From NCBI RefSeq assembly GCF_003334405.1, contig NZ_QOWM01000003.1: a stretch of 64,000 bases of DNA; one strand, given 5' to 3'. The position numbers and the translations under genes are program-made. The stretch is from Escherichia coli. GTDB taxonomy: Bacteria > Pseudomonadota > Gammaproteobacteria > Enterobacterales > Enterobacteriaceae. Under the pieces are notes generated by a model, which was given only the letters and a program-made list of their open reading frames with translations, had not been told where the DNA came from and made no database searches. This document shows, in pieces, positions 1-48,082 of this stretch (positions are counted from its first letter, which is position 1; the number at the start of each line of letters is the position of its first letter).

Positions 1-84
1 CCAGCCCCGACCCAACCCCAAGCGTTGAAATACTAGCCATATAGTTTCCTTAATCATGCGACGTGTATAGAACGAATACCGGGG

Positions 85-111
85 TTATCGGCGTAAGCGG
101 GGTAAAGTTTA
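85..111 (-). promoter_or_regulatory. sigma28 (FliA) promoter for divergent fliD operon
   Basis: Minus strand reads TAAA-N15-GCCGATAA exactly (reverse complement of + strand 85-111); fliD would lie upstream beyond the window start. Confidence 0.6.
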
Positions 112-184
112 CGATTTATTTTTTGCCTTAATGGCACGAACAGCAACGAGGAAGGGGAGTATTTCGACCGCTAGAAAAAAATTC

Positions 185-211
185 TAAAGGTTGTGAGTGA
201 CCAGACGATAA
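185..211 (+). promoter_or_regulatory. sigma28 (FliA) class-3 promoter of fliC
   Basis: TAAA(185-188)-N15-GACGATAA(204-211), one mismatch to the sigma28 -10 consensus GCCGATAA; about 77 nt upstream of fliC ATG. Confidence 0.65.
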
Positions 212-287
212 CAGGGTTGACGGCGACGAAGCCGAAGGGTGGAAGCCCAATACTTAAACCGTAGACTTGAAAACAGGAAAATGAATT

Positions 288-1337
288 ATGGCACAAGTCA
301 TTAATACCAACAGCCTCTCGCTGATCACTCAGAACAACATCAACAAAAACCAGTCTGCGCTGTCGACTTCTATCGAGCGCCTCTCTTCTGGTCTGCGTAT
401 TAACAGCGCTAAAGATGACGCCGCGGGCCAGGCGATTGCTAACCGCTTTACTTCTAACATCAAAGGTCTGACTCAGGCCGCACGTAACGCCAACGACGGT
501 ATTTCTCTGGCGCAGACGGCTGAAGGCGCGCTGTCAGAGATTAACAACAACTTGCAGCGTATTCGTGAACTGACCGTTCAGGCCTCTACCGGCACGAACT
601 CTGATTCCGACCTGTCTTCTATTCAGGACGAAATCAAATCCCGTCTTGATGAAATTGACCGTGTATCTGGTCAGACCCAGTTCAACGGTGTGAACGTGCT
701 GTCGAAAAACGATTCGATGAAGATTCAGATTGGTGCCAATGATAACCAGACGATCAGCATTGGCTTGCAACAAATCGACAGTACCACTTTGAATCTGAAA
801 GGATTTACCGTGTCCGGCATGGCGGATTTCAGCGCGGCGAAACTGACGGCTGCTGATGGTACAGCAATTGCTGCTGCGGATGTCAAGGATGCTGGGGGTA
901 AACAAGTCAATTTACTGTCTTACACTGACACCGCGTCTAACAGTACTAAATATGCGGTCGTTGATTCTGCAACCGGTAAATACATGGAAGCCACTGTAGT
1001 CATTACCGGTACGGCGGCGGCGGTAACTGTTGGTGCAGCGGAAGTGGCGGGAGCCGCTACAGCCGATCCGTTAAAAGCACTGGATGCCGCAATCGCTAAA
1101 GTCGACAAATTCCGCTCCTCCCTCGGTGCCGTTCAAAACCGTCTGGATTCTGCGGTCACCAACCTGAACAACACCACCACCAACCTGTCTGAAGCGCAGT
1201 CCCGTATTCAGGACGCCGACTATGCGACCGAAGTGTCCAACATGTCGAAAGCGCAGATTATCCAGCAGGCGGGCAACTCCGTGCTGTCTAAAGCCAACCA
1301 GGTACCGCAGCAAGTTCTGTCTCTGTTACAAGGCTAA
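288..1337 (+). CDS. fliC: flagellin FliC, short-variable-domain allele (349 aa)
   Basis: Conserved flagellin N-terminus MAQVINTNSLSL and C-terminus VLSLLQG; RBS AGGAAA upstream; K-12 FliC is 498 aa, so this is a different H-antigen allele. Confidence 0.95.
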   Translation: MAQVINTNSLSLITQNNINKNQSALSTSIERLSSGLRINSAKDDAAGQAIANRFTSNIKGLTQAARNANDGISLAQTAEGALSEINNNLQRIRELTVQASTGTNSDSDLSSIQDEIKSRLDEIDRVSGQTQFNGVNVLSKNDSMKIQIGANDNQTISIGLQQIDSTTLNLKGFTVSGMADFSAAKLTAADGTAIAAADVKDAGGKQVNLLSYTDTASNSTKYAVVDSATGKYMEATVVITGTAAAVTVGAAEVAGAATADPLKALDAAIAKVDKFRSSLGAVQNRLDSAVTNLNNTTTNLSEAQSRIQDADYATEVSNMSKAQIIQQAGNSVLSKANQVPQQVLSLLQG

Positions 1338-1379: not shown

Positions 1380-1467
1380 TGCCCGCAATTTACCGGTAAC
1401 CCCCAAATAACCCCTCATTTCACCCACTAATCGTCCGATTAAAAACCCTGCAGAAACGGATAATCAT

Positions 1468-11172: not shown

Positions 11173-11248
<76 letters not shown>

Positions 11249-11302
11249 GTTTAAAAGACATCGGCCTCAAGCGGATGTCTGGCTGAAAGGCCTGAAGAAT
11301 TT

Positions 11303-11376
11303 GGCGCGTTAACAAAGCGGTTATGTAGCGGATTGCAAATCCGTCTAGTCCGGTTCGACTCCGGAACGCGCCTCCA
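11303..11376 (+). tRNA. cysT: tRNA-Cys (anticodon GCA)
   Basis: 74-nt sequence GGCGCGTTAACAAAGCGG...GAACGCGCCTCCA with encoded CCA. Confidence 0.95.
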
Positions 11377-11388
11377 CTTTCTTCCCGA

Positions 11389-11475
11389 GCCCGGATGGTG
11401 GAATCGGTAGACACAAGGGATTTAAAATCCCTCGGCGTTCGCGCTGTGCGGGTTCAAGTCCCGCTCCGGGTACCA
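11389..11475 (+). tRNA. leuZ: tRNA-Leu (anticodon TAA), long variable arm
   Basis: 87-nt sequence GCCCGGATGGTGGAATCGGTAGACAC...CGCTCCGGGTACCA. Confidence 0.95.
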
Positions 11476-15067: not shown

Positions 15068-15230
15068 GGTCCAGCCAGAAGAGTAAGAGAAAGCACTATT
15101 TTACGCGTTACAGTGCTGCGACAATGGCCGGAAAAGACGCCTGGCAGGCGCTATTTCTTGCCATCTGTAGGTGTCAGAAATAGGGGGCTGTTTTTTGATT
15201 ATCATTTTTATAACATTAAAGGGGTATTTA

Positions 15231-24667: not shown

Positions 24668-25246
24668 ATGAGTGAAAAAAGCATTGTTCAGGAAGCGCGG
24701 GATATTCAGCTGGCAATGGAATTGATCACCCTGGGCGCTCGTTTGCAGATGCTGGAAAGCGAAACACAGTTAAGTCGCGGACGCCTGATAAAACTTTATA
24801 AAGAACTGCGCGGAAGCCCACCGCCGAAAGGCATGCTGCCATTCTCAACCGACTGGTTTATGACCTGGGAACAAAACGTTCATGCTTCGATGTTCTGTAA
24901 TGCATGGCAGTTTTTACTGAAAACCGGTTTGTGTAATGGCGTCGATGCGGTGATCAAAGCCTACCGTTTATACCTTGAACAGTGCCCACAAGCAGAAGAA
25001 GGACCACTGCTGGCATTAACCCGTGCCTGGACATTGGTGCGGTTTGTTGAAAGTGGATTACTGCAACTTTCCAGCTGCAACTGCTGCGGCGGCAATTTTA
25101 TTACCCACGCTCACCAGCCTGTTGGCAGCTTTGCCTGCAGCTTATGTCAACCGCCATCCCGGGCAGTAAAAAGACGTAAACTTTCCCAGAATCCTGCCGA
25201 TATTATCCCACAACTGCTGGATGAACAGAGAGTACAGGCTGTTTAA
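24668..25246 (+). CDS. flhC: flagellar master regulator FlhC (192 aa)
   Basis: Translation [27 protein letters not shown]... with C-terminal Cys-rich zinc site. Confidence 0.95.
25177..25203 (+). promoter_or_regulatory. sigma28 promoter inside the flhC 3' end (motA / MotR promoter)
   Basis: TAAA(25177-25180)-N15-GCCGATAT(25196-25203), within the last 70 nt of flhC. Confidence 0.6.
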
Positions 25247-29676: not shown

Positions 29677-29702
29677 TTCTCCCGATTTCCTCAATTGAAA
29701 TG

Positions 29703-29732
29703 AACCCGATGATCTGCGCATCGGGTTTTTTA
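29703..29732 (+). terminator. rho-independent terminator after cheW
   Basis: 7-bp stem CCCGATG/CATCGGG followed by TTTTTT. Confidence 0.7.
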
Positions 29733-29762
29733 TTTCAATTTCGCGGCGGGTGGCATCAGCAA

Positions 29763-29789
29763 TAAAGTTTCCCCCCTCCTTGCCGATAA
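29763..29789 (+). promoter_or_regulatory. sigma28 promoter of the tar-tap-cheRBYZ operon
   Basis: Perfect TAAA(29763-29766)-N15-GCCGATAA(29782-29789), about 30 nt upstream of the tar ATG. Confidence 0.7.
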
Positions 29790-29820: not shown

Positions 29821-31479
29821 ATGATTAACCGTATCCGCGTAGTCACGCTGTTGGTAATGGTGCTGGGGGTATTCGCACTGTTACAGCTTATTTCCGGCAG
29901 TCTGTTTTTTTCTTCCCTTCACCATAGCCAGAAGAGCTTTGTGGTTTCCAATCAATTACGGGAACAGCAGGGCGAGCTGACGTCAACCTGGGATTTAATG
30001 CTGCAAACGCGCATTAACCTGAGTCGTTCAGCGGTACGGATGATGATGGATTCCTCCAATCAACAAAGTAACGCCAAAGTTGAATTGCTCGATAGCGCCA
30101 GGAAAACATTGGCGCAGGCAGCGACGCATTATAAAAAATTCAAAAGCATGGCACCGTTACCTGAAATGGTCGCTACCAGTCGTAATATTGATGAAAAATA
30201 TAAAAACTATTACACAGCGTTAACTGAACTGATTGATTATCTAGATTATGGCAATACTGGAGCTTATTTCGCTCAGCCAACCCAGGGAATGCAAAATGCA
30301 ATGGGCGAAGCGTTTGCTCAGTACGCCCTCAGCAGTGAAAAACTGTATCGCGATATCGTCACTGACAACGCAGATGATTACCGATTTGCCCAGTGGCAAC
30401 TGGCGGTTATCGCGCTGGTGGTATTGATTCTGCTGGTGGCGTGGTACGGCATTCGCCGTATGTTGCTTACTCCGCTGGCAAAAATTATTGCTCACATTCG
30501 CGAAATCGCCGGTGGTAACCTGGCGAATACCCTGACCATTGACGGGCGCAGTGAAATGGGCGACCTGGCGCAGAGCGTTTCACATATGCAACGCTCTTTG
30601 ACTGACACCGTCACTCATGTCCGCGAAGGTTCAGATGCCATCTATGCCGGTACCCGTGAAATTGCGGCGGGCAACACCGATCTTTCCTCCCGTACTGAAC
30701 AGCAGGCATCCGCGCTGGAAGAAACTGCCGCCAGCATGGAGCAGCTCACCGCGACAGTGAAGCAAAACGCCGATAACGCCCGCCAGGCCTCGCAACTGGC
30801 GCAAAGTGCCTCCGACACCGCCCAGCACGGCGGCAAAGTGGTGGATGGCGTAGTGAAAACGATGCATGAGATCGCCGATAGTTCGAAGAAAATTGCCGAC
30901 ATTATCAGCGTTATCGACGGTATTGCCTTCCAGACTAATATCCTCGCGCTGAATGCCGCGGTTGAAGCCGCGCGTGCGGGTGAACAGGGCCGTGGTTTTG
31001 CCGTGGTGGCGGGTGAAGTGCGTAATCTTGCCAGTCGCAGCGCCCAGGCGGCAAAAGAGATCAAAGCCCTCATTGAAGACTCCGTCTCACGCGTTGATAC
31101 CGGTTCGGTGCTGGTCGAAAGCGCCGGGGAAACAATGAACAATATCGTCAATGCTGTCACTCGCGTGACTGACATTATGGGCGAGATTGCATCGGCATCG
31201 GATGAACAGAGCCGTGGCATCGATCAAGTCGCATTGGCGGTTTCGGAAATGGATCGCGTCACGCAACAGAACGCATCGCTGGTGCAGGAATCAGCTGCCG
31301 CCGCCGCTGCGCTGGAAGAACAGGCGAGTCGTTTAACGCAAGCAGTTTCCGCGTTCCGTCTGGCAGCCAGCCCACTCACCAATAAACCGCAAACACCATC
31401 CCGTCCTGCCAGTGAGCAACCACCGGCTCAGCCACGACTGCGAATTGCTGAACAAGATCCAAACTGGGAAACATTTTGA
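29821..31479 (+). CDS. tar: methyl-accepting chemotaxis protein II Tar (553 aa)
   Basis: Recognised N-terminus [21 protein letters not shown]; C-terminal NWETF pentapeptide; track ORF N-extended to 29800. Confidence 0.95.
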
Positions 31480-36190: not shown

Positions 36191-36317
36191 CGCACACTAT
36201 GCTTGATGTGTGGCAGCAAAAGCCCTAAATCCCGCCTGTTTTGCCCCTTACTCAAACCATTGAACGCTTTGCGCTCTGGCATCATTCACGCTTAATACTC
36301 TTTCCAGGATTGGCGAC

Positions 36318-43233: not shown

Positions 43234-44069
<836 letters not shown>

Positions 44070-47983: not shown

Positions 47984-48082
47984 CCTGATGCGCTATGCTT
48001 ATCAGGCCTACATAGTCCCTGCAATATATTGAATTAGCAAGGTTTTGTAGGCCGGATAAGGCGTTCACGCCGCATCCGGCAG
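47984..48082. repeat. BIME with two REP elements between torZ and cmoB
   Basis: GCCTGATGCGCTATGCTTATCAGGCCTAC and GTAGGCCGGATAAGGCGTTCACGCCGCATCCGGCAG. Confidence 0.6.

Follow-up and report, generated by a model that had tools for sequence, protein, structure and literature searches.

Two motifs in the fliD-fliC gap of an H4-type Escherichia coli are very probably divergent sigma-28 promoters, the fliD one forming half of a dual class 2/3 promoter

Introduction

The locus described here raises the question of whether two sigma-28-like motifs lying back to back between fliD and fliC are genuine promoters, and whether the control region that they form is class 3 throughout. The divergent fliD/fliC sigma-28 pair as such is already known and belongs to textbook biology, and the experimental support for both promoters comes from K-12 or other genera, at homologous positions. 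The DNA analyzed was a 64-kb stretch of an E. coli chromosome (hereafter the window), which runs in reverse orientation relative to MG1655. An earlier note on the window had proposed a perfect TAAA-N15-GCCGATAA on the minus strand (85-111) and a TAAA-N15-GACGATAA on the plus strand (185-211), placed within about 130 bp and read as the sigma-28 promoters of fliD and fliC in a compact bidirectional class 3 control region. We examined this proposal against chance expectation, published K-12 data and the corresponding loci of other Enterobacterales.

Results

The fliD-fliC locus and its alleles

The gap between the two genes measures 247 bp (41-287). The reverse complement of positions 1-40 gives the translation MASISTLGVGSGL, which fits fliD according to the RefSeq annotation of the identical strain SK1144, and the open reading frames that follow fliC are fliA, fliZ, and tcyJ, in this order. 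Many complete genomes match positions 1-330 at 100% identity, and the flanking genes carry the annotations fliD and FliC there. Since the variable region of fliC is 100% identical to that of strains labelled O104:H4, O25b:H4-ST131, O25:H4, and O2:K1:H4, the gene was assigned to the H4 antigen allele. The flagellin that it encodes is short, with 349 residues. The coordinates of all features are collected in Table 1.

Two intergenic alleles were found in E. coli, with the window type (at least 95% identity) in about 1,330 complete genomes and the K-12 type (about 70% identity to the window) in about 3,190. Because the two alleles are so diverged, the comparison of the window with K-12 could be used as a natural footprint.

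The intergenic region of the window allele shares 84% identity with its counterpart in Pseudocitrobacter faecalis and 66% with the K-12 type, the K-12-type allele itself having 82-84% identity to Kluyvera. The FliD N-terminus of the window type shows 90.8% identity to Pseudocitrobacter and 84.9% to the K-12 type. At the sequence level, these values point to an exchange of the promoter-plus-gene cassette as a whole between genera, by which the locus seems to have been transferred horizontally; the horizontal exchange of H-antigen genes has long been known. Elsewhere in the window, the Rfam matches above the gathering score were the MicL small RNA, three tRNAs, and ES036 (CssrF).

Table 1. Features of the fliD-fliC gap and related sites in the window
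Feature	Position	Strand	Remarks
fliD 5′ end (filament cap protein)	1-40	-	ATG at 40; the rest lies beyond the window start
fliD ribosome-binding site AAGGAA	46-51	-	Read from the sequence; TTCCTT almost invariant in the 19-sequence alignment
fliD sigma-28 (class 3) start, predicted	77-79	-	Inferred, 6-8 nt past the -10 octamer; flanking block GAACGAATACCGGGG kept
fliD sigma-28 -10 GCCGATAA	85-92	-	Perfect consensus; GTTATCGGC invariant in 19 sequences from about 10 genera
fliD sigma-28 -35 TAAACTTT	104-111	-	Within the invariant AAAGTTTA block of the 19-sequence alignment
FlhDC (FlhD4C2) box AGCGGTCGAAATACTC-N11-TGCTGTTCGTGCCATT, predicted, for fliD	130-172 (43 bp)	-	20/28 consensus positions
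A-tract GAAAAAAATTC	174-184	+	Adjoins the fliC -35 on its upstream side; almost invariant in 19 sequences
fliC sigma-28 -35 TAAAGGTT	185-192	+	Invariant in the 19-sequence alignment; same element in the K-12 FliA ChIP motif
fliC sigma-28 -10 GACGATAA	204-211	+	Invariant in the 19-sequence alignment; same in the K-12 FliA ChIP motif
fliC start, predicted	217-220	+	Inferred, 6-9 nt past the -10; most likely G219
Leader hairpin 1 CGGC-GACGAA-GCCG	221-234	+	Predicted fold
Leader hairpin 2 GGGU-GGAA-GCCC	237-248	+	Predicted fold
fliC ribosome-binding site AGGA	275-278	+	Read from the sequence; AGG kept
fliC, 349-aa flagellin, H4 type	288-1337	+	Open reading frame list and annotation
FlhDC box at fliA	1397-1440		Window scan; with the -10 at equal spacing, 1397-1464
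Sigma-28-like motif CAAAAAGAAATTGCTTAAAGCCGATAA	2531-2557	-	Antisense in fliZ; perfect -10, CAAA in the -35
Rfam matches (MicL, three tRNAs, ES036)	43761-44068 (+), 11173-11472 (+), 48004-48046 (-)		Above the gathering score
FlhDC box at yecR, known target	15123-15164		Window scan; with the -10 at equal spacing, 15099-15164
otsA intragenic site TGAAATTGCACCAGATCGAGCCGATAA	21945-21971	-	Identical to a weak K-12 FliA ChIP-seq site, score 2
motA promoter, within flhC	25177-25203	+	Identical to the K-12 FliA motif, Table 2 of Fitzgerald et al. (2014)
tar promoter	29763-29789	+	Identical to the K-12 FliA motif, Table 2 of Fitzgerald et al. (2014)
FlhDC box at flhB, known target	36219-36261		Window scan; with the -10 at equal spacing, 36219-36285

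Two sigma-28 motifs beyond chance expectation

Direct reading and a pattern search both bore out the two motifs. The minus-strand motif is TAAACTTTACCCCGCTTACGCCGATAA, with no mismatch (12/12 core positions), while the plus-strand motif, TAAAGGTTGTGAGTGACCAGACGATAA, has one mismatch against TAAA-N15-GCCGATAA (11/12), and the N15 spacing is present in both. The published FliA consensus has TAAAGTTT as the -35 and GCCGATAA as the -10, with 11 bp between them (PMC2859248). The pair spans 127 bp, with 73 bp (112-184) lying between the two -35 elements as measured from their 5′ ends. Each motif faces its own gene, the distance from the end of the -10 to the ATG being 44 nt for fliD and 76 nt for fliC.

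Matches with at most one mismatch numbered six in the 64 kb, on both strands together, where 100 dinucleotide-preserving shuffles gave 0.41 on average; the maximum in any shuffle was three, and six was reached in none. For 247 bp, the chance expectation is about 0.002 matches, and two well-oriented matches within one flagellar gap of this length are therefore far beyond chance.

Published FliA ChIP-seq sites of K-12 coincide with five of the six matches, namely fliC, fliD, motA, tar, and otsA (PMC4183435). Since the matches outside the gap at motA, tar, and otsA are themselves published FliA motifs, the pattern is highly specific in this window. The Rfam family C0465 was matched at 29696-29773 (-), overlapping the tar promoter on the opposite strand. 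The sixth match, antisense in fliZ, was absent among the rows of Table 2 of Fitzgerald et al. (2014) obtained for the region. It is probably a chance match, because a -35 change equivalent to its CAAA lowered the activity of the aer promoter about tenfold (PMC2859248).

Correspondence with the K-12 promoters

When the window was aligned with K-12, both motifs fell on K-12 FliA sites, with identical or nearly identical -35 and -10 elements and with both spacers rewritten. The K-12 fliC/fliDST region (Fitzgerald et al., 2014; PMC4183435) has the same genes, the same divergent layout and the same FlhDC input to fliD, and it shares the elements TAAAGGTT...GACGATAA for fliC and TAAACTTT...[G/A]CCGATAA for fliD. 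The window differs from it not only in the overall identity of the intergenic allele (about 66-70%) but also in lacking about 19 bp between the FlhDC box and the fliC A-tract, which gives a -35 gap of 73 bp versus about 92 bp. Furthermore, the fliD -10 is the perfect GCCGATAA in the window and ACCGATAA in MG1655, whereas the promoter-proximal arm of the FlhDC box is more degenerate in the window.

In K-12, the fliC motif TAAAGGTTGTTTTACGACAGACGATAAC has a FliA ChIP-seq score of 110, and deletion of fliA lowers the expression of fliC from 2319 to 11 (Fitzgerald et al., 2014; PMC4183435). The K-12 fliDST motif TAAACTTTGCGCAATTCAGACCGATAAC has a score of 43, and the expression of fliDST, 633 in the wild type, drops to 356 when fliA is deleted and to 3 when flhD or flhC is deleted (PMC4183435). 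As the fliA deletion merely halves fliDST expression, the sigma-28 promoter of fliD makes a small contribution under laboratory conditions. When FliA was overexpressed in a K-12 flhD deletion, fliD expression returned to at least the wild-type level (PMC4183435). By analogy with these homologous positions, FliA and FlhDC would be expected to occupy the window's promoters and its genes to depend on them in the same manner.

Conservation of the promoter pair across Enterobacterales

For the survey, one genome per species was taken, the start-codon context of fliC was located by scanning, and the DNA upstream was searched, which gave 98 Enterobacterales loci with sufficient upstream sequence. In 92 of the 98 loci, fliD is divergent and a motif is present both on the fliC side and on the fliD side, so that the proposed divergent pair, backed by the K-12 ChIP-seq sites, is also kept across the order. 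Variovorax has no divergent fliD and carries the fliC-side motif only.

Among the 92 species, the fliC-side motif begins 93-122 nt before the ATG, and the -10 lies in most cases 35-46 nt from the ATG on the fliD side and 66-95 nt on the fliC side. On the fliD side, the -35 is TAAACTTT in 86/92 and the -10 is the perfect GCCGATAA in 74/92; on the fliC side, the -35 is TAAAGGTT in 68/92, and the -10 is GACGATAA in 45/92 and GCCGATAC in 37/92. When 19 intergenic regions, taken from about ten genera, were aligned, invariant blocks appeared at both -35/-10 pairs, with further kept blocks between them. In 92 of the 98 loci, as in the 19 aligned sequences, the -35 and -10 elements were kept while the spacers and flanks drifted. 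The gap between the two -35 elements places the window, with its 73 bp, in the most compact class; most species have 91-95 bp at this point, and Pantoea has about 163 bp.

The kept A-tract that precedes the fliC -35 occupies about -35 to -45 relative to the predicted fliC start and might contact the alpha subunit of RNA polymerase in the manner of an UP element. UP elements are A/T-rich tracts located at about -40 to -60 by which promoter activity is raised. The flagellin gene hag of Bacillus subtilis reportedly has a sigma-D promoter with an UP element, as described by Fredrick and colleagues in 1995. Both are flagellin promoters of the sigma-28/sigma-D family, and in both the -35 is immediately preceded by an A-rich tract; however, B. 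subtilis is a distant organism, and the contact of the A-tract with the alpha C-terminal domain is only putative in the window.

An FlhDC box phased to fliD

The class 3 label given to the whole region turned out to be incomplete. While the divergent sigma-28 pair stands, fliDST is a dual class 2/3 operon, and the earlier note had missed an FlhDC box between the two sigma-28 promoters. The box follows the consensus AAYGSSNNAAATAGCG-N10-12-CGCTATTTNNSSCRTT of 42-44 bp (PMC9962212), and the K-12 fliDST promoter was positive for FlhDC in ChIP-qPCR (PMC4183435). The same combination of an FlhDC box and a sigma-28 promoter for each operon is found in the dual class 2/3 promoters of fliAZ, flgMN, flgKL, and fliDST in E. 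coli and Salmonella.

An unbiased scan placed the box among the four best FlhDC sites of the 64 kb, the scores out of 28 being 21 for yecR, 20 for fliD, and 20 for flhB, with fliA just below these sites at 19; yecR and flhB are known targets. At this score level, eight hit-counts were observed against about two per mononucleotide shuffle, with palindromic sites counted twice. Another FlhDC-box-like site, at 30651-30693 and about 0.9 kb downstream of the tar promoter, scored 20/28, equal to the fliD and flhB boxes. It may be due to chance, and we know of no FlhDC target at this position.

Both arms of the fliD box, at 130-145 and 157-172, are kept in the 19-sequence alignment, and the box reaches 21-23/28 in close relatives. 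Because the promoter-proximal arm, TGCTGTTC in the window, is more degenerate than the CGCTATTC of most relatives, the class 2 input may be weaker in this allele.

The phasing of the box was determined from the best box of the inter-promoter region in each species, with 72 cases reaching a good score. From the end of the box to the fliD element TAAACTTT, the distance was 18-19 nt in 69 of the 72 (18 nt in the window), whereas the distance to the fliC -35 varied from 12 to 182 nt in the same set. The fixed spacing on one side and the variable distance on the other indicate that the box belongs to fliD. A distance of 18-19 nt from the box to a sigma-70 -10 also occurs at fliA (GATAAT, 1459-1464), yecR (TAAAAT), and flhB (CATCAT).

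On the basis of this shared geometry, TAAACT (111-106) is a candidate -10 hexamer for the class 2 promoter of fliD. The octamer TAAACTTT might then serve two sigma factors, each in its own register, as the -35 of sigma-28 and, with its first six bases, as the -10 of an FlhDC/sigma-70 class 2 promoter, a sequence-based reading to which we give an even chance. The arrangement resembles fliA, where the sigma-70 -10 GATAAT also lies inside the sigma-28 promoter and 18 nt from the box; the fliA hexamer sits in the sigma-28 spacer, whereas the fliD candidate coincides with the sigma-28 -35. If the reading is true, transcription of fliD would begin at two sites separated by about 20 nt, one near 98 and the other near 78, and the near-invariance of the octamer, which is TAAACTTT rather than the consensus TAAAGTTT in 86/92 species, would be explained. 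The class 2 start of fliD is said to have been mapped in Salmonella by Kutsukake and Ide in 1995 and by Wozniak and colleagues in 2010, and the sharing of the element may already be documented in those mapping papers. A scan of the intergenic region with the sigma-70 consensus returned no promoter-like site, which fits class 2 promoters because these have poor hexamers.

The strength of the class 2 input lends some weight to a different view of the minus-strand motif, in which it would mainly be the core of the FlhDC/sigma-70 class 2 promoter of fliD, its sigma-28 likeness would be of little consequence, and only fliC would be class 3. The dependence of K-12 fliDST is more than 100-fold on FlhDC and about twofold on FliA (PMC4183435), and the FlhDC box is phased to the fliD element. 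However, a clear FliA ChIP-seq peak lies on the K-12 motif, and fliA overexpression in the flhD deletion restores fliD to the wild-type level or above. The -10, with GTTATCGGC invariant and the full octamer perfect in about four fifths of the species, is hard to explain without selection by sigma-28, since GCCGATAA lies downstream of the predicted class 2 start and thus has no role in a sigma-70 promoter. We therefore consider the view that fliD lacks a meaningful sigma-28 promoter improbable.

Two further alternatives hardly survive. At 92-113, where an inverted repeat precedes a T-rich run, an intrinsic terminator or another structured element could be suspected instead of a promoter part, as a simple scan gave a 7-pair stem with an 8-nt loop and a ATTTATTTTT tail on the plus strand; this candidate was rejected as extremely unlikely, because such sites number three in 1.6 kb, where 2.0 are expected, no gene on the plus strand terminates ahead of the repeat, and the stem relies on the promoter spacer (94-103), which is not kept in K-12 or other genera. 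As for the two motifs being chance matches in AT-rich intergenic DNA without promoter function, short degenerate motifs do arise randomly, and the match at 2531 (-) in fliZ looks like one, but the shuffle expectations, the correct orientation and spacing relative to flagellar genes, the retention of the motifs in 92 species amid drift and the presence of FliA on the homologous K-12 positions leave practically no room for it, the K-12 ChIP data and the conservation having already refuted it.

Transcription start sites

At aer, transcription begins 6 bp past the -10 octamer (PMC2859248), and the class 3 start of fliD was predicted by applying this rule. A class 2 start of fliD would be expected near 97-99 from the geometry of TAAACT. 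In Enterobacter, the fliC start seen by RNA-seq agrees with these FliA elements, the -35 and the -10, between fliC and fliD (PMC10705468). In addition, the first leader hairpin begins at a fixed distance of 9-10 nt from the fliC -10 in all 63 parsed species. The aer start, the Enterobacter fliC start and the fixed hairpin distance lend indirect support to placing the fliC start about 8 nt past the -10.

The start sites of Kim (2012) include one for fliA at 1471 (window coordinate). Their fliD start, 79 nt upstream of the ATG and corresponding to about 122 in the window, has a read count of just 3 and lies off both predicted starts, class 3 and class 2; the FlhDC box would be at -9 to -51 relative to it, at odds with the class 2 geometry of fliA. 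Their fliC entry lies inside fliD with a read count of 2 and is uninformative. The two entries do not fit a sigma-28 start, yet they are too weak as evidence either way. The supplement of Romero (2014) mentions neither gene and contains no fliC or fliD start coordinates, the supplements of Cho (2014) give only expression values for b1923 and b1924 and no starts, and the papers on SpiC, ProQ, genomic SELEX of sigma factors and phage Chi contained no start coordinates.

The fliC leader and 3′ UTR

The minimum free energy fold of the window's fliC leader has a z score of -2.67, and two adjacent hairpins, kept across Enterobacterales, were predicted in 65 of 71 distinct fliC leaders. An anchored parse was used to count the pairs of hairpin 1, since its 3′ strand was misaligned between clades. 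The fourth pair covaries in both hairpins, with C-G in 31, U-A in 20, and a G-U wobble in 11 of 63 cases for hairpin 1, and 27, 15, and 12 cases, respectively, for hairpin 2. Of the two hairpins, RNAalifold retrieved only hairpin 2 from the MAFFT alignment. The hairpins matched no Rfam family, and when a covariance model was derived from Escherichia-like leaders, its hits to the motif lay nowhere but upstream of fliC; the variants of Salmonella, Citrobacter, Serratia, and Photorhabdus were not reached by this model at E values up to 1.

The hairpins could be an mRNA-stabilizing 5′ structure, as far as the predicted folds go. The CsrA site in the leader of B. subtilis hag is a precedent for another function, and the GGA in the loop of hairpin 2 was considered as such a site. 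This idea was dropped because the stem is kept across clades and the GGA is not, the loop being AACA or AAACAA in other clades.

At the other end of the gene, the fliC 3′ UTR (1338-1400, compared with L002 1913-2107) consists of a terminator only in this H4 allele. About 160 nt with both REP elements, the bulk of K-12 FliX (and FliX-S), are missing from the window. FliX, a sigma-28-dependent small RNA of K-12, is present at near full length in 3,503 of 5,426 complete E. coli genomes.

Discussion

The fliD-fliC gap of the window very probably holds two genuine divergent sigma-28 promoters, of which P(fliC) is purely class 3 and P(fliD) supplies the class 3 part of a dual promoter with an FlhDC box. 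Observed directly were the motifs with their statistics and conservation, as well as the FlhDC box and its phasing, and the mechanism outlined below is the one that they would support. Early in the cascade, the master regulator bound at the FlhDC box (172-130) would recruit sigma-70 polymerase to fliDST as a class 2 operon, possibly with TAAACT (111-106) as the -10 hexamer and a start near 97-99. After export of the anti-sigma factor FlgM, FliA-RNA polymerase would fire P(fliC), with its -35 at 185-192, its -10 at 204-211 and a start near 219, as the sole driver of flagellin synthesis, perhaps aided by the A-tract (174-184) acting like an UP element. The class 3 half of P(fliD), with its -35 at 111-104 and its -10 at 92-85, would start near 78. 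A change of GCCGATAA (92-85) to GCGCTCAA would then remove the class 3 fliD start only.

The region determines when flagellin and the filament cap are made, and in what amount. Among the flagellar products, flagellin is the costliest, and it is a major antigen, in this case of the H4 type, as in ST131 and O104:H4. The confirmation of the promoters adds nothing new in principle, but it shows that an allele with only about 66-70% identity to that of K-12 has retained the regulatory logic, and the exact coordinates are usable for engineering and reporter work in H4 strains. For strain-specific flagellar regulation, the phasing of the FlhDC box, the leader hairpins and the absence of most of FliX could matter more than the promoter pair itself.
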